Below, piece after piece: positions 1 through 9,892 of a stretch of 64,000 nucleotides of DNA. The first letter of the stretch is position 1. Each line of letters starts with the position of its first letter. The position numbers were made by a program, and so were the translations under genes. The DNA comes from a phage: the sequence record PV467748.1; one strand, given 5' to 3'. The notes beneath the pieces were generated by a model. That model was given only the letters and a program-made list of their open reading frames with translations, was not told the origin of the DNA and did not search any database.

Positions 1-254
1 ATAAAGGTTCCAACGAAATGGACGCAGGTATCTACTATGCTCCGTACGTTGCACTGACTCCGCTGCGTGGTTCCGATCCGAAGAACTTCCAACCGGTAAT
101 GGGCTTCAAAACTCGTTACGGTATCGGTATTAACCCGTTCGCTGACCCAGCTGCTCAGGCGCCTACCAAACGTATTCAGAATGGTATGCCTGACATCGTT
201 AACAGCCTCGGTCTGAATGGTTACTTCCGTCGCGTATATGTTAAAGGTATCTAA
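1..254 (+). CDS. 23: Major capsid protein gp23, C-terminal fragment (gene continues upstream of window)
   Basis: ORF 18..254 is open in frame to the window start; tail ...YYAPYVALTPLRGSDPKNFQPVMGFKTRYGIGINPFAD resembles T4 gp23 C-terminus; followed by gene 24 as in T4. Confidence 0.8.
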   Translation, partial: KGSNEMDAGIYYAPYVALTPLRGSDPKNFQPVMGFKTRYGIGINPFADPAAQAPTKRIQNGMPDIVNSLGLNGYFRRVYVKGI

Positions 255-302: not shown

Positions 303-569
303 CTATGCAATCTTAACACGATGGTTGATGATATCACGGAAGTCAATACGATTTTCTTGGATTTTCAGCCAGTTACCAGATTTGTCTTTGGTATGGGTAG
401 AGTATTCACCGTTCCACCAGAAGTCGGTAGCATAAGCCATGGCTTCGTATTTCTTAACTAGTGCATTCACTGCATTACCGTTAGGATTGGAACCATATTT
501 TTCTACCAGGGCTTTGATGTCTTTATCAAGAGCGGAAAGAGTAGTACGAATAAAGTTTAACTTGTTCAT
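303..569 (-). CDS. Hypothetical early protein, 88 aa (at the T4 segD position)
   Basis: ORF track 303..584; start moved to Met6 (MNKLNF...) which has GGAG RBS; own early promoter upstream. Confidence 0.5.
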   Translation of the reverse strand: MNKLNFIRTTLSALDKDIKALVEKYGSNPNGNAVNALVKKYEAMAYATDFWWNGEYSTHTKDKSGNWLKIQENRIDFRDIINHRVKIA

Positions 570-596
570 TTTTAATCTCCTCATGTTTTGATAGGT

Positions 597-634: not shown

Positions 635-642
635 TATAAATA
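635..642 (+). promoter_or_regulatory. T4 late promoter TATAAATA upstream of gene 24
   Basis: Exact TATAAATA about 30 nt upstream of ATG at 671. Confidence 0.6.
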
Positions 643-670
643 AACATATACCCTCAATAAGGAAAGCGCA

Positions 671-1954
671 ATGGCAAAGATTAACGAATTACTGCGCGAG
701 TCAACAACTACTTCTAGCAACTCATTGGGTCGCCCTAATCTTGTTGCTTTGACCCGTGCTACAACCAAATTGATTTACCGTGATATTATTGCTGAACAAC
801 GTACTAGCCAGCCTATTGCTGCATTGTATGGTGTCAAATATCTTACTCCTGATAATGAATTTAGCTTCCAAACTGGTGCCGTTTATGGTGGTGAAGTTGG
901 TTCTAAAGACCGTGAAACTATCCCGGAACTCACAGATAAGGCCCAGGCTATTGCCAAGGGTGAATATTTCAAGTATCAGAACATAGTTTATAAGGCTCTT
1001 CAAGCAAGCCCACTCGCATCCACTAGCGCTACAGGATTGGCTGATGCTCTTCAAGAAGGTTTAGTGTCATTAACATGTCGTCTGGTTCCGGACGCTGCTC
1101 ATACCACTAAATTCGAAGCGAGTGATGTAGAAATCTCTGATGCTGTATTCCAGGTAAATAAATGGAATGCTCCTGTTAAGACTCGTAAATTGAAGACTGC
1201 TTTGACAGTAGAATTGGCACAGGATATGGAATCAAATGGATTCGACGCCCCTGCATTCTTAGAAGACCTCCTGGCTACAGTAATGGCAGATGAAATTAAT
1301 AAAGACGTTCTGCAATCCTTGATTACGGTATCTAAACGTTATAAAGTTACCGGTGTATCTGATAACGGCATCATAGATTTGACTTATGATAGTGCTCCGG
1401 AATCTGCACGTAAACTTTATGAAATTGTTTGTGAGATGAATTCTGAAATCCAGAAAACTACTTCTTATTCTGGTACGTTTGTTGTGGCTTCAAGTCGTGT
1501 GGCTGCAATGCTTGCAGGTTCTGGCTGGTTAAAACATAAACCTGAAGATAATAATTGGCTCCCAGAAACCGCCTATGGGTATTTGTTGAATGGATTACCT
1601 CTGTTCTGTGACGTTAACAGCCCGTTGGATTATGTTATCGTCGGTGTTAAAGAGAACTATGGTGGTAATGAAGTTGTCGGTTCTATTTTCTATGCCCCGT
1701 ATACAGAAGGCCTGGATTTAGACGACCAAGAACACGTTGGCGCTTATAAGGTTATTGTCGACCCGGATTCATTACAGCCTTCTATTTCTCTGATGGTTCG
1801 TTATGCACTGTCCGCTAATCCATACACCGTAGCTAAAGACGATAAAGAAGCTCGTGTTATAGATGCAACTAATATGGATTTAATGGCGGGCCAGAGTAAT
1901 ATGTCTTATCTGCTTGGTGTTAAACTTCCAGCAATTATTTACGAGGCTGATTAA
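671..1954 (+). CDS. 24: Capsid vertex protein gp24
   Basis: 427 aa; N-term MAKINELLRESTTT..., LQSLITVSKRYKVTG, SANPYTVAKDDKEAR match recalled T4 gp24; position after 23. Confidence 0.9.
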   Translation: MAKINELLRESTTTSSNSLGRPNLVALTRATTKLIYRDIIAEQRTSQPIAALYGVKYLTPDNEFSFQTGAVYGGEVGSKDRETIPELTDKAQAIAKGEYFKYQNIVYKALQASPLASTSATGLADALQEGLVSLTCRLVPDAAHTTKFEASDVEISDAVFQVNKWNAPVKTRKLKTALTVELAQDMESNGFDAPAFLEDLLATVMADEINKDVLQSLITVSKRYKVTGVSDNGIIDLTYDSAPESARKLYEIVCEMNSEIQKTTSYSGTFVVASSRVAAMLAGSGWLKHKPEDNNWLPETAYGYLLNGLPLFCDVNSPLDYVIVGVKENYGGNEVVGSIFYAPYTEGLDLDDQEHVGAYKVIVDPDSLQPSISLMVRYALSANPYTVAKDDKEARVIDATNMDLMAGQSNMSYLLGVKLPAIIYEAD

Positions 1955-3234
1955 TGTCTAAGATTGTAGACCTAATTAAAGAATCCACATTGACGGCTGC
2001 CAACTCGGTTGGCCGTCCTGCTCTTCTTTCATACACCCAAGCAACTAATAAACGAATCTTTAAAGCCTTAGTTGCTGAACAAAAAACAAGTCAACCTGTT
2101 GCCGCTCTGTACGGGGTTCGTGTACTTAATCCTGATGACAAAATGACTTATCTTGGTGGCGCTACATTTGCAGGCCAGATTGGTATGTCGGAACGTGAAA
2201 ATATTCCTGAATTTACCGATTCGTCTACAGCTTATGCAGCCGGCGATATGTTCCAGTTTGAAAGTGTAGTGTTTAAAGTTCTGGAAGCATCTCCTTTCGC
2301 CGGAACCACAGAAACTGACCTCGGTGAAGTTATTTCTGAAGCAGTGGCTGCTGGGCATATTCGTATGGTATCAGATGCGGCTATTACTTCTAAATTCGAA
2401 CAGGGCCATCCTGAAATTGCTGAAGCAGGCTTCCGTATTGATAAGTGGCAGACTGAAGTTAAATCACGTAAACTGAAAACTTCATTGACCGTCGAATTAG
2501 CCCAAGATCTAGAATCAAACGGGTTTAATGCTCCTAATTTCGTTGAAAACCTGCTAGGCATTCAAATGGCAGAAGAAATTAATAAGGACGTATTACAGTC
2601 ATTAATTACGGTGAGTTCTCGTTTTAAAGTCCAGGGTGTTTCCGAAAAGGGTGTATTGGACCTTACCAACCCACGTTACGATAATGCTCAGGACCGTGCT
2701 CGTACATTGTATTATTACATGTGTGAGATGAACTCTGCCGTACAACGCCAGACTTCTTTCGCTGGGACTTATGCAGTAGCTAGTTCTCGTTGTGCCGCTA
2801 TTCTTGCCGCATCTGGTTGGGTTGAGAAAAAGGAAGACCAAGACGAACTGGCTTACGGTATATTAAAAAATGGCCTGCCTCTTTATGCCGATATGAATAG
2901 TCCGTGTGATTATGTTATTGTTGGTGTAAATGCTCAGATGGGTGAAGGACAGACGGTCGCATCTTTATATTATGCGCCTTATACGGAAGGTTTGAATGAG
3001 GTTGATGAGGAAGGGGATACTTCAGTAGGTGAATTTAAGGTTATTGTTGACCCGGAAAGCTTACAACCTACAGTAGCATTGCTTGCTCGTTATGCATTGA
3101 CTGCAAACCCTTATACCGTCGCTAAGGACGATAAAGAAGCCCGCATTATTGATGGTTCTGATATGGACAAAATGGCTAATCAAAGTCAATTGAGTTCTTA
3201 TCTCGGTGTAAAATTACCACCTTTAGAAAAATAA
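1954..3234 (+). CDS. Second, diverged gp24-like capsid vertex protein paralog
   Basis: 426 aa, collinear with the upstream gp24 (shared LQSLITVS, YAPYTEGL, SLQP, ANPYTVAKDDKEAR blocks) but diverged; start overlaps upstream stop (TAATG). Confidence 0.8.
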   Translation: MSKIVDLIKESTLTAANSVGRPALLSYTQATNKRIFKALVAEQKTSQPVAALYGVRVLNPDDKMTYLGGATFAGQIGMSERENIPEFTDSSTAYAAGDMFQFESVVFKVLEASPFAGTTETDLGEVISEAVAAGHIRMVSDAAITSKFEQGHPEIAEAGFRIDKWQTEVKSRKLKTSLTVELAQDLESNGFNAPNFVENLLGIQMAEEINKDVLQSLITVSSRFKVQGVSEKGVLDLTNPRYDNAQDRARTLYYYMCEMNSAVQRQTSFAGTYAVASSRCAAILAASGWVEKKEDQDELAYGILKNGLPLYADMNSPCDYVIVGVNAQMGEGQTVASLYYAPYTEGLNEVDEEGDTSVGEFKVIVDPESLQPTVALLARYALTANPYTVAKDDKEARIIDGSDMDKMANQSQLSSYLGVKLPPLEK

Positions 3235-3236
3235 AA

Positions 3237-3257
3237 GGGACCGTGAGGTCCCTTTTT
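3237..3257. terminator. Hairpin gggacc-gtga-ggtccc plus T-run after gene 24 paralog
   Basis: 6 bp GC stem, GNRA-type loop, TTTTT on plus strand; also sits just 3' of convergent rnlB. Confidence 0.6.
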
Positions 3258-3260
3258 CAT

Positions 3261-4268
3261 TTATTTGGATACTAGGTCAATCCATACTGCTCGTAGGGTA
3301 TCTTTTACACACTCAACGAGCTGCTTTTTAACTTCAACAGGATTTTCAGCATCAGTTAATTCTAATTCTTCACGGGCAGCTTCTTCTAAGATATCTTGGA
3401 CTGTCAAGCCCATTACCTTTCCAAAATCCTTCGGCGATACTTCACCAATCTTACTGATGACGTTGTTAATGCGGTTAACAGTCACATAATCAGTGAATTG
3501 CCACATCAAGTCCATATCGTCTTGGGATAAAACCACTGCAACTTTAATAGGCTTATCAGACTTTTTCTTCTCGCTGAATTTAGAGTTCTTACATTTAATC
3601 GCTACACGATTTCCGTTTGGAAGCCAGATAGGAACATCAGGTTTCAGTACAAAGCCTTCGGCGGTGAATACTTTACCTTCTACCTTAGGAATAAAATCTG
3701 TTGAGTTCGCAATAGTTAGGCCAGCATTATCCACTGCAAAATTATAATCAGGAACAACAGAATCAAAATCATTAGGAAGTTTAATAAGGTCTTCAAAGCT
3801 ACCAGTGGCCAGACATGGCGCAACCTTAAACTTATGGATAATACAGAAGGCTTCCATCAATGTATCGGATAGAACAGATTCTGAGCCATCTTCCTTAGTA
3901 ACTCGGATATCGAACACATAAAAGTCTTTATCACCGTAATCCACATTCTTCTGGATACCCGGCCCAGCGAATTCGCCGTAAATTTGATATGACTGATAAT
4001 TAATCGATTCAATTAGATGTTGAACGGATTTAATAGAATCAGCATAATTCTTTAAAACAATTTCATAACCAAAGAAATCTTCAGCAGGGAGGATAGGGCC
4101 AGTGCGCTTGGCGCATGTGACTGCGTCACGTTCTATGATTAAACTAAAGTTGGTCCCATGAATCTTCTCACGTGCCACCCATTCACCACCAGTCAAACCG
4201 TTAGTACGGAGTTTTTCGATAAACTTACTGTTGTAGTGGTTTTCGAGACTGCTATATTTCTTGAACAT
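3261..4268 (-). CDS. rnlB: RNA ligase 2 (Rnl2)
   Basis: 335 aa; nucleotidyltransferase motif I EKIHGTN with Lys at position 35 as in T4 Rnl2; T4 position after gene 24. Confidence 0.85.
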
Positions 4269-4696: not shown

Positions 4697-5545
4697 TTAA
4701 TAAACGTAATCGTATATAATACCAGCTTCTAAAGTGGTGCGATGAATAATTCGACCATTACGAGATTCTTGTACATCAACCTCTGGATAGTCGGTAATCA
4801 TTTTTTGAAGTGTATACCGGTGCAAATAATACGGGCTATCCGGGTCATCTGTTTTCCAGTCTTTGCCTTCAAGAGTCATTTTCTGGATTTCATCCATAAC
4901 CCACCAACCGCACCAAATATAAGCTGAATTACGTACTGGCAATGGATGAACGTAAGGTAATTCGCCATCCGGAACCGGTGCGACTTTAGCCGTGACCGTT
5001 ACATTACCGGTTTTTGTGACAGTCGCCTGGTTATAATCAGCCGCCGAAACCACAACAGAAACTTCAATAACCTGTGAACCTTCGGTGCTTGTGTCGATTG
5101 TTAGAGTATCCGTGGTGCCAACTACAGGAGAACCGTCTTTCTTCCAAGAATAGGCAAAAGTAGCGCCAGCAGGCGCGCCGACTACATCCGCTTTAAAAGA
5201 AGCTGGAGTGCCTTCCGGAACATTAATTGATTCTGGGGTTAATGTCACAGAAACACCAGACATAGTTTTATTCTGGATAGTTAAAGTCGTCTCAGCTTCA
5301 GCAGTTTCCGGTTCGCCGTCCGCTGGTGTAGTTGTTGCAACAACTTTAATAGTCTTGCTGCCTGCTGGACCAACAGCAACATAATCCATTGCAGCAGTCA
5401 CAGAAGATTGAGGAACGCCATCAACGGTCCAGACAAATGATTCAGTACCTTCAGCTGCAGCACCGGAACCGGTCGCAGTGAAATTGGTTGTTGCTCCAAT
5501 AACGGCCGTAGCCGCCAAAGGAGAAATATCTACGGTATAAGCCAT
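4697..5545 (-). CDS. hoc: Hoc-like outer capsid decoration protein (Ig-like repeats)
   Basis: 282 aa; repeated Ig-like Thr/Val-rich segments; C-terminal Trp/Tyr-rich domain; T4 position between rnlB and inh. Confidence 0.65.
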   Translation of the reverse strand: MAYTVDISPLAATAVIGATTNFTATGSGAAAEGTESFVWTVDGVPQSSVTAAMDYVAVGPAGSKTIKVVATTTPADGEPETAEAETTLTIQNKTMSGVSVTLTPESINVPEGTPASFKADVVGAPAGATFAYSWKKDGSPVVGTTDTLTIDTSTEGSQVIEVSVVVSAADYNQATVTKTGNVTVTAKVAPVPDGELPYVHPLPVRNSAYIWCGWWVMDEIQKMTLEGKDWKTDDPDSPYYLHRYTLQKMITDYPEVDVQESRNGRIIHRTTLEAGIIYDYVY

Positions 5546-6245: not shown

Positions 6246-6253
6246 TATAAATA
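6246..6253 (+). promoter_or_regulatory. T4 late promoter TATAAATA upstream of uvsW
   Basis: Exact TATAAATA about 28 nt upstream of uvsW ATG. Confidence 0.55.
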
Positions 6254-6259
6254 TAACTA

Positions 6260-6267
6260 TATTTATA
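6260..6267 (-). promoter_or_regulatory. T4 late promoter TATAAATA (minus) upstream of inh/hoc
   Basis: Plus-strand tatttata = rc TATAAATA, divergent from the uvsW late promoter. Confidence 0.5.
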
Positions 6268-9880: not shown

Positions 9881-9892
9881 TATTTATAAATA
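9881..9892. promoter_or_regulatory. Overlapping divergent late promoters (palindromic tatttataaata)
   Basis: Reads TATAAATA on both strands; serves gene 51 (+) and gene 26 (-). Confidence 0.55.

Follow-up and report, generated by a model that had tools for sequence, protein, structure and literature searches.

A conserved tandem pair of gp24-type capsid vertex protein genes in a JS98-like T4-type phage and its relatives

The 64,000-nucleotide (nt) stretch of phage DNA in sequence record PV467748.1, hereafter referred to as the window, carries two adjacent genes for gp24-type capsid vertex proteins. The upstream gene, 24a, encodes the canonical gp24, the downstream gene, 24b, represents by sequence comparison a distinct sister subfamily, and the pair is old and conserved. 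The arrangement is best explained as a late bicistronic operon for two non-redundant vertex proteins, both of which probably enter the prohead and are trimmed by the prohead protease gp21. The pair as such is already known, as it has been annotated in related phages, and the window is another Dhakavirus example of it. What makes the pair more than routine is the age of its second copy, the wide distribution of that copy, its invariable position in tandem with the first, and its strong constraint, and this raises the question of why about one tenth of the sequenced T4-like phages have for so long kept two constrained vertex proteins, when T4 needs only one and even that one can be bypassed via gp23.

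A first-pass annotation of the window, made from the sequence alone, had described two adjacent open reading frames (ORFs) of 427 and 426 amino acids (aa), overlapping at stop and start codon, as paralogues, and this description holds. The two proteins share 240 identities over 428 aligned positions (56%, with 77% positives; BLASTP E = 1e-179), a level of similarity that excludes chance, and the blocks LQSLITVS, YAPYTEGL, VIVDP-SLQP and ANPYTVAKDDKEAR pointed out earlier are found in both copies. At the junction, GATTAATGTCT, the TAA stop codon of 24a (1952-1954) and the ATG start codon of 24b (1954-1956) share the base A1954, forming TAATG. Both proteins match the Pfam family PF07068 (Gp23 family), 24a with an E-value of 6.5e-98 and 24b with 3.6e-97. 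The alignment with gp24 and gp23 that had been proposed as a check identifies both copies as gp24-type: over about 424 residues T4 gp24 is 71% identical to 24a and 57% identical to 24b, versus 25-26% identity of either copy to gp23, and a search of PDB sequences with 24b retrieved gp24 (1yue) at 1.4e-151 versus gp23 at about 2e-11. Similarity to gp24 extends over the full length of both proteins and lies clearly above that to gp23; 24a and 24b are full-length gp24-type paralogues. Since T4 gp24 is the closer to 24a, the first copy is the T4-like one, as the annotation had stated, and T4 does possess a single gene 24, located between segD and rnlB.

Each copy has its own orthologue in phage JS98 (GenBank EF469154), with identities of 96% for 24a and 91% for 24b versus 57% across the paralogues, and in a phylogenetic tree the 24a protein of the window groups with that of JS98 and its 24b protein with JS98 24b. 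The JS98 record lists the two as 24a and 24b, 'gp24 head vertex protein', the records of JS10 and IME08 do likewise, VR20 has a 'capsid vertex protein I' and 'II', and ZX14 a 'head vertex protein II'. The second gene, which the first-pass annotation had presented as noteworthy, had thus already been recorded in JS98, JS10, IME08 and VR20, and the abstract of a 2004 paper by Chibani-Chennoufi et al. in J Bacteriol reportedly mentions a 'gene 24 duplication in JS98'. JS98 and its relatives JS10, IME08, Bp7, WG01 and QL01 carry the orthologous pair in the same place, in the same order and with a similarly tight junction. JS98 differs from the window only at the allelic level, in that its junction reads TAAATG and has no overlap, versus the 1-nt overlap in TAATG, and in that the two proteins are 426 and 427 aa long, versus 427 and 426 aa in the window, the C-terminal lengths being swapped. 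Further afield within the Straboviridae, phages of the VR20/VR5 type, Gelderlandvirus (S16-like phages of Salmonella and Escherichia), Marfavirus (Klebsiella phages F48 and Marfa), CIP9-like phages and the Erwinia phages Cronus, IT22 and FBB1 share both subfamilies, their tandem order and their coupling; they differ in that their 24b proteins are 69-85% identical to that of the window and their 24a partners come from several canonical subclades.

A tblastn search with 24b located gp24-type genes at 1538 places in 1419 phage records, which corresponds to about 119 second copies. Genes with at least 80% identity to 24b were found in 92 records, and the DNA of the tandem pair, used as a query, was covered to at least 80% in 133 records, a figure that is possibly slightly inflated by the rule for joining matches. 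The pair is known from roughly 120-130 sequenced phages belonging to at least six lineages. The two-copy groups are Dhakavirus, the VR-type coliphages, Gelderlandvirus, Marfavirus F48, the CIP9-like phages of Enterobacter and Kosakonia, the Erwinia phages Cronus, IT22 and FBB1, and several uncultured lineages; their hosts are Escherichia, Salmonella, Klebsiella, Enterobacter/Kosakonia and Erwinia. In each of the 24 loci examined, a canonical 24a is followed immediately by 24b on the same strand, the two being separated by -4 to +1 nt (-1 nt in the window), and neither the tblastn records nor these 24 loci yielded a genome in which a 24b-type gene was the sole vertex gene. The gene is intact throughout, encoding 426 aa in the window and 422-432 aa in every relative examined, and the earlier judgment that it is no frame-disrupted pseudogene is borne out. 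Downstream of 24b some uncultured contigs carry extra genes that are absent from the window: two FBB1-like contigs have two such plus-strand genes (about 340 and 165 aa, with no Pfam match) between 24b and rnlB (L032:4845-6382 and L034:4826-6341), and a third contig has one gene of 239 aa after 24b (L035:4827-5546).

With respect to the age of the pair, a neighbor-joining tree of 135 sequences was built, and two distance corrections were applied in generating 400 bootstrap trees. All 24b proteins come together in a single clade (bootstrap 93), which splits off after the outgroup composed of Krischvirus, Slopekvirus and Tulanevirus and is placed outside, or near the base of, the other Tevenvirinae-type gp24 proteins. 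This clade was sister to the neighboring 24a clade in none of the 400 trees, and fell inside the enterobacterial canonical clade in 10 of them. The 24a partners are spread over several canonical subclades and are interspersed with single-copy phages such as T4, CC31 and PM2. Between the two copies of one genome, synonymous sites are essentially saturated, the proportion of synonymous differences (pS) being 0.60-0.73. A recent duplication is ruled out by the tree together with the saturated synonymous sites, and the local tandem duplication in the title of the first-pass annotation has to be given up: 24b is a member of an old clade of its own, found in at least six lineages, that never stands beside the adjacent 24a, with pS as high as 0.73. 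Recent gene conversion between the copies was considered as well and rejected, because the longest nucleotide word common to both is only 14 nt and because pS stays uniformly high over the length of the gene.

The tree, the saturation, and the fact that protein distances among 24a and among 24b proteins are correlated across genomes (r = 0.92) fit a scenario in which a single old duplication was followed by co-inheritance and repeated loss. Alternatively, 24b might have come from a deep-branching T4-like lineage (Jiaodavirus- or Tegunavirus-like, or unsampled) and been inserted beside gene 24, the pair then spreading by recombination. This is a possible though not the favored history; it concerns the origin of 24b only, and is compatible with a functional explanation of the pair. 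The bootstrap replicates lend it some credence, as 24b was sister to the Jiaoda/Teguna/X20 group in 33% of them, about as often as it was sister to all canonical gp24 proteins (14-32%), and Jiaodavirus gp24 is the one most similar to 24b (60-64%). However, Jiaodavirus gp24 comes closest to nearly all of the gp24 proteins compared (62-73% identity to other Tevenvirinae-type gp24 proteins), and its closeness to 24b therefore points to a short branch rather than to a specific kinship. A lateral origin could also draw on the swapping of copies between lineages and on the two-fold difference between 24a and 24b in synonymous divergence (dS) when the window is compared with JS98, but the failure to find a genome with 24b as sole vertex gene in the searches described above, and the correlation of 0.92, which is what long co-inheritance would produce, speak against it. 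The swap concerns two uncultured T4-like contigs (L035:2224-4778 and L036:58-2603), whose 24b genes cluster together (bootstrap 87) whereas their 24a genes (P0041, P0091) belong to separate canonical subclades, T4/CC31-like and PM2-like, so that one member of the pair must have been exchanged between lineages. Within the genus, mosaicism is seen near the 24a/24b junction, dS between the window and JS98 being 0.53 for 24a and 1.15 for 24b. The corresponding values for the window and QL01 are 0.37 and 0.29, and the 24b protein of UP19 is 98.8% identical to that of the window, though at the DNA level the 5-kb region reaches only 91.8% identity.

Both genes are under strong purifying selection. 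The median ratio of nonsynonymous to synonymous substitution rates (dN/dS), estimated pairwise by the method of Nei and Gojobori, is 0.088 for 24a, 0.063 for 24b (maximum 0.116, 99 usable pairs) and 0.149 for gp23, so that 24b is at least as constrained as 24a. The first-pass annotation had entertained the idea of a 'diverging spare copy', an idea that is at odds with a dN/dS of about 0.06, and it is highly improbable that 24b is a redundant spare heading for loss or a recent duplicate confined to one lineage. Viability of the single-copy phages, which make up the majority (about 90% of records), would permit such redundancy, as would the finding that point mutations in gp23 can bypass the need for T4 gp24 (PMC9546572; PMC3012670). 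Nevertheless, 24b displays no frame disruption, truncation or relaxed selection, being intact and full-length at every locus examined; the pair is common to at least six lineages, its synonymous sites are saturated, and none of the 400 bootstrap trees makes 24b the sister of the adjacent 24a clade.

The predicted structure of 24b resembles that of the T4 vertex protein. An AlphaFold2 model (mean predicted local distance difference test score 76, predicted template modeling score 0.72) is closest to gp24* determined in situ (5vf3_a; template modeling (TM) score 0.87/0.89, E 7e-54), followed by gp24* of 7vrt and by 1yue, versus TM scores of only about 0.55-0.65 for gp23* chains; as modeled, 24b carries an HK97-like fold with an insertion (I) domain. 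A corresponding fold can be assumed for 24a from its 71% identity to T4 gp24. Both proteins begin with a propeptide of about 10 residues that ends in a gp21 site of the form L/I-x-E, MAKINELLRE↓S in 24a and MSKIVDLIKE↓S in 24b, where the arrow marks the predicted cleavage point. The motif L-[LI]-x-E↓S, situated at residues 7-11 with its end at residue 9-11, is present in 25 of 25 24b proteins and in 105 of 105 canonical ones, the rest of the propeptide being variable. In T4 the prohead protease strips exactly 10 N-terminal residues from gp24 inside the prohead (PMC9546572), and taken together with the conserved motif this suggests, indirectly, that 24b is a prohead component too. Both proteins would lose about 10 N-terminal residues to gp21, and both would be built into the prohead as gp24-type, HK97-fold subunits of pentamers. 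The likeness to T4 gp24 (1YUE; in situ 5VF3, 7VRT/7VS5, 8GMO) thus includes the fold with its insertion domain, the 10-residue propeptide ending in L-x-E, and the position as a late gene downstream of gene 23; the difference is that T4 has one gene 24, whose product occupies all 11 non-portal vertices, and that a set of substitutions, one insertion and one deletion are peculiar to 24b.

The substitutions are found at 12 diagnostic positions that are conserved within each subfamily and differ between the two (A26S, T32N, L34R, Y36F, K56R, Y57V, T68G, Y267F, L288V, K328N, E335Q and L415Y); the insertion, of 3 residues, lies in the loop that corresponds to T4 348-359, and the deletion, of 4 residues, near residue 297. 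Six of the 12 substitutions fall in the N-terminal arm (residues 26-57). Residues 11-20 of gp24*, which sit just upstream of these positions, touch the neighboring hexamer in the expanded T4 head (PMC9546572), and the 24b-specific changes in the arm may alter contacts with neighboring gp23 hexamers or with the scaffold. Similarity between the subfamilies is lowest in the I domain and its linkers (T4 residues 60-165, 40%) and in the loop 348-359, and highest in residues 166-235 (70%) and 360-427 (66%); 108 alignment columns are near-invariant and identical across both. Divergence of the I domain was considered as a sign of specialization and set aside: the least similar regions are not indicative of it, because they are also the most variable ones inside each subfamily (mean identity 0.59 and 0.46 for the I domain, which contains no diagnostic position).

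The concentration of conserved 24b-specific changes in the N-terminal arm could also be read as a sign that 24b acts outside the vertex, be it as a factor needed for assembly only, as a component of the prohead core that the maturing head loses, or as a decoy or backup against a host defense aimed at the vertex protein. Before it is cleaved, the N-terminal region of gp23 presumably contacts the scaffolding core (PMC9546572), and 24b occurs only together with a canonical 24a, never in its place. Such a role is nevertheless improbable, as the similarity to gp24 is full-length, the predicted fold matches gp24* at a TM score of 0.87, conservation extends to the regions that make up the remainder of the HK97 fold, and the sequence gives no hint of a new domain or activity. 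We know of no defense system that senses gp24, which counts against a decoy or backup in particular.

If both copies are indeed vertex proteins and non-redundant, two-copy phages would need both, and most likely the 11 non-portal vertices would be shared between pentamers of each type, placed either randomly or at particular vertices. A more specific version, in which one of the copies is confined to certain geometrically distinct vertices among the 11 non-portal ones of the prolate head, is speculative: the single apical vertex might be distinguished from both five-membered rings, or the ring near the portal from the distal one, and the N-arm substitutions of 24b would suit different hexamer or scaffold neighbors. 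Comparable to the pair is the older duplication that gave rise to gp23 and gp24, which likewise left a capsid duplicate beside its parent, specialized for its position in the lattice and belonging to the same Pfam family; gp23 and gp24 are only about 25% identical, however, and form hexamers and pentamers respectively, whereas 24a and 24b are 56% identical and both look pentamer-type. Position-specific copies, if real, would constitute the first tailed-phage capsid with specialized penton proteins for non-equivalent vertices, and would bear on the shaping and closure of prolate heads.

Somewhat less likely still is the mixing of 24a and 24b within one pentamer, an option that the first-pass annotation had named beside alternative vertices. 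The ratio would be fixed or random, with the coupling of the two genes setting the stoichiometry of the hetero-oligomer. The tight coupling of stop and start codons at 24 of 24 loci agrees with such a mixture, as do the 108 columns held in common and the strong conservation between the subfamilies of residues 166-235 and 360-427. A five-fold ring rules out a symmetric 1:1 mixture, however, and the I domain and its linkers, which lie on the neighboring subunit of the same capsomer (PMC9546572), are the parts in which the two proteins are least similar. Should the copies occupy different vertices or share pentons, they would make a natural system in which to study the specification of non-equivalent five-fold positions in a prolate capsid, and would provide a second, separately addressable display site for the engineering of T4-type capsids. 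The 12 diagnostic residues, the conserved cleavage site and the list of two-copy lineages provide handles for such work.

The proposed operon is suggested by signals that flank and link the two genes (Table 1). TATAAATA is the consensus of T4 late promoters, and the copy upstream of 24a is the only one on the plus strand between positions 1 and 6245, so that there is none inside 24a ahead of 24b; from its position it is a candidate promoter for the pair. No terminator-like site was found between 24a and 24b in a consensus scan, and a single late bicistronic message running from this TATAAATA to the hairpin downstream of 24b would cover both genes. Translation of 24b may be coupled to that of 24a through the TAATG overlap and the GAGG located within the last codons of 24a, and the TAY-GAG-GC context at the junction is conserved at Dhaka-, VR-, Gelderland- and CIP9-type loci.

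Table 1. Features in and around the 24a/24b pair of the window.
Feature	Position	Strand	Remarks
Gene 23 (major capsid protein), 3' end	18..254	+	Pfam PF07068 profile positions 313-366; position of JS98 gene 23; gene runs off the start of the window
Terminator-like hairpin after the gene 23 stop codon	268..289	+	Consensus scan; 9-bp stem and T-rich tail
TATAAATA, T4 late-promoter -10 consensus	635..642	+	29 nt upstream of the 24a start
Putative ribosome-binding site AAGGAAAG for 24a	659..666	+	Read from the sequence
24a, canonical capsid vertex protein	671..1954	+	427 aa; 71% identity to T4 gp24; 96% to JS98 24a; PF07068
Putative Shine-Dalgarno GAGG for 24b	1943..1946	+	Within the codons for Y-E-A that end 24a; 7 nt upstream of the 24b ATG
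24b, diverged second capsid vertex protein paralogue	1954..3234	+	426 aa; 57% identity to T4 gp24; 91% to JS98 24b
Hairpin, terminator-like on both strands	3233..3256	.	Consensus scan; perfect 10-bp stem; between convergent 24b and rnlB
rnlB	3261..4268	-	ORF; convergent with 24b

Several observations weigh against an operon for two non-redundant vertex proteins. With regard to the signals, TATAAATA is not enriched across the window (9 found versus 6.8 expected), and the terminator-like sites, which are consensus matches only, are no more numerous in the region than in shuffled sequences. The codon adaptation index, which fails to separate structural from non-structural genes here, takes slightly lower values for 24b in six of six lineages. 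Many close relatives, among them T4, CC31 and PM2, manage with a single copy. In T4, gp24 alone fills the 11 vertices, its 55 copies showing no significant conformational differences (PMC9546572), so that geometry alone does not demand two proteins. The full-text papers searched included no virion proteomics or cryo-electron microscopy of a two-copy phage and no discussion of the function, proteomics or structure of the second gp24, and the papers on F48, on CkP1 and on Tevenvirinae diversity do not mention it.

The window itself belongs to a JS98-like T4-type coliphage of the genus Dhakavirus, as judged by megablast of the initial 5 kb and of another 25 kb located further along; the best matches are WG01, Bp7, LQ5 and vB_EcoM_FB at about 94% nucleotide identity, with JS98 at 90.6%. 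The gene order is 23 - small ORF - 24a - 24b - rnlB - 24.3 - hoc - inh - uvsW, which places both vertex genes among the late genes of the head-gene cluster downstream of gene 23 and is collinear with JS98 and also, but for the extra gene 24 and the missing seg genes, with T4. The small ORF between genes 23 and 24a (303-584, minus strand) encodes a 93-aa protein of unknown function that matches phrog_6003 (E 2e-49); its place is taken in T4 by segD, and segE, which precedes uvsW in T4, is likewise absent from the window. The Hoc protein of the window (4697-5545, minus strand) is 282 aa long versus 376 aa in T4, and matches Hoc-like families of the PHROG database mainly across residues 100-282, so that it presumably has fewer immunoglobulin-like domains. 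Copies of TATAAATA also occur back to back on opposite strands in the divergent intergenic region between inh and uvsW (6246-6253, plus strand, and 6260-6267, minus strand), a placement expected for divergent late promoters, and a second back-to-back pair lies at 9881-9888 (minus strand) and 9885-9892 (plus strand).

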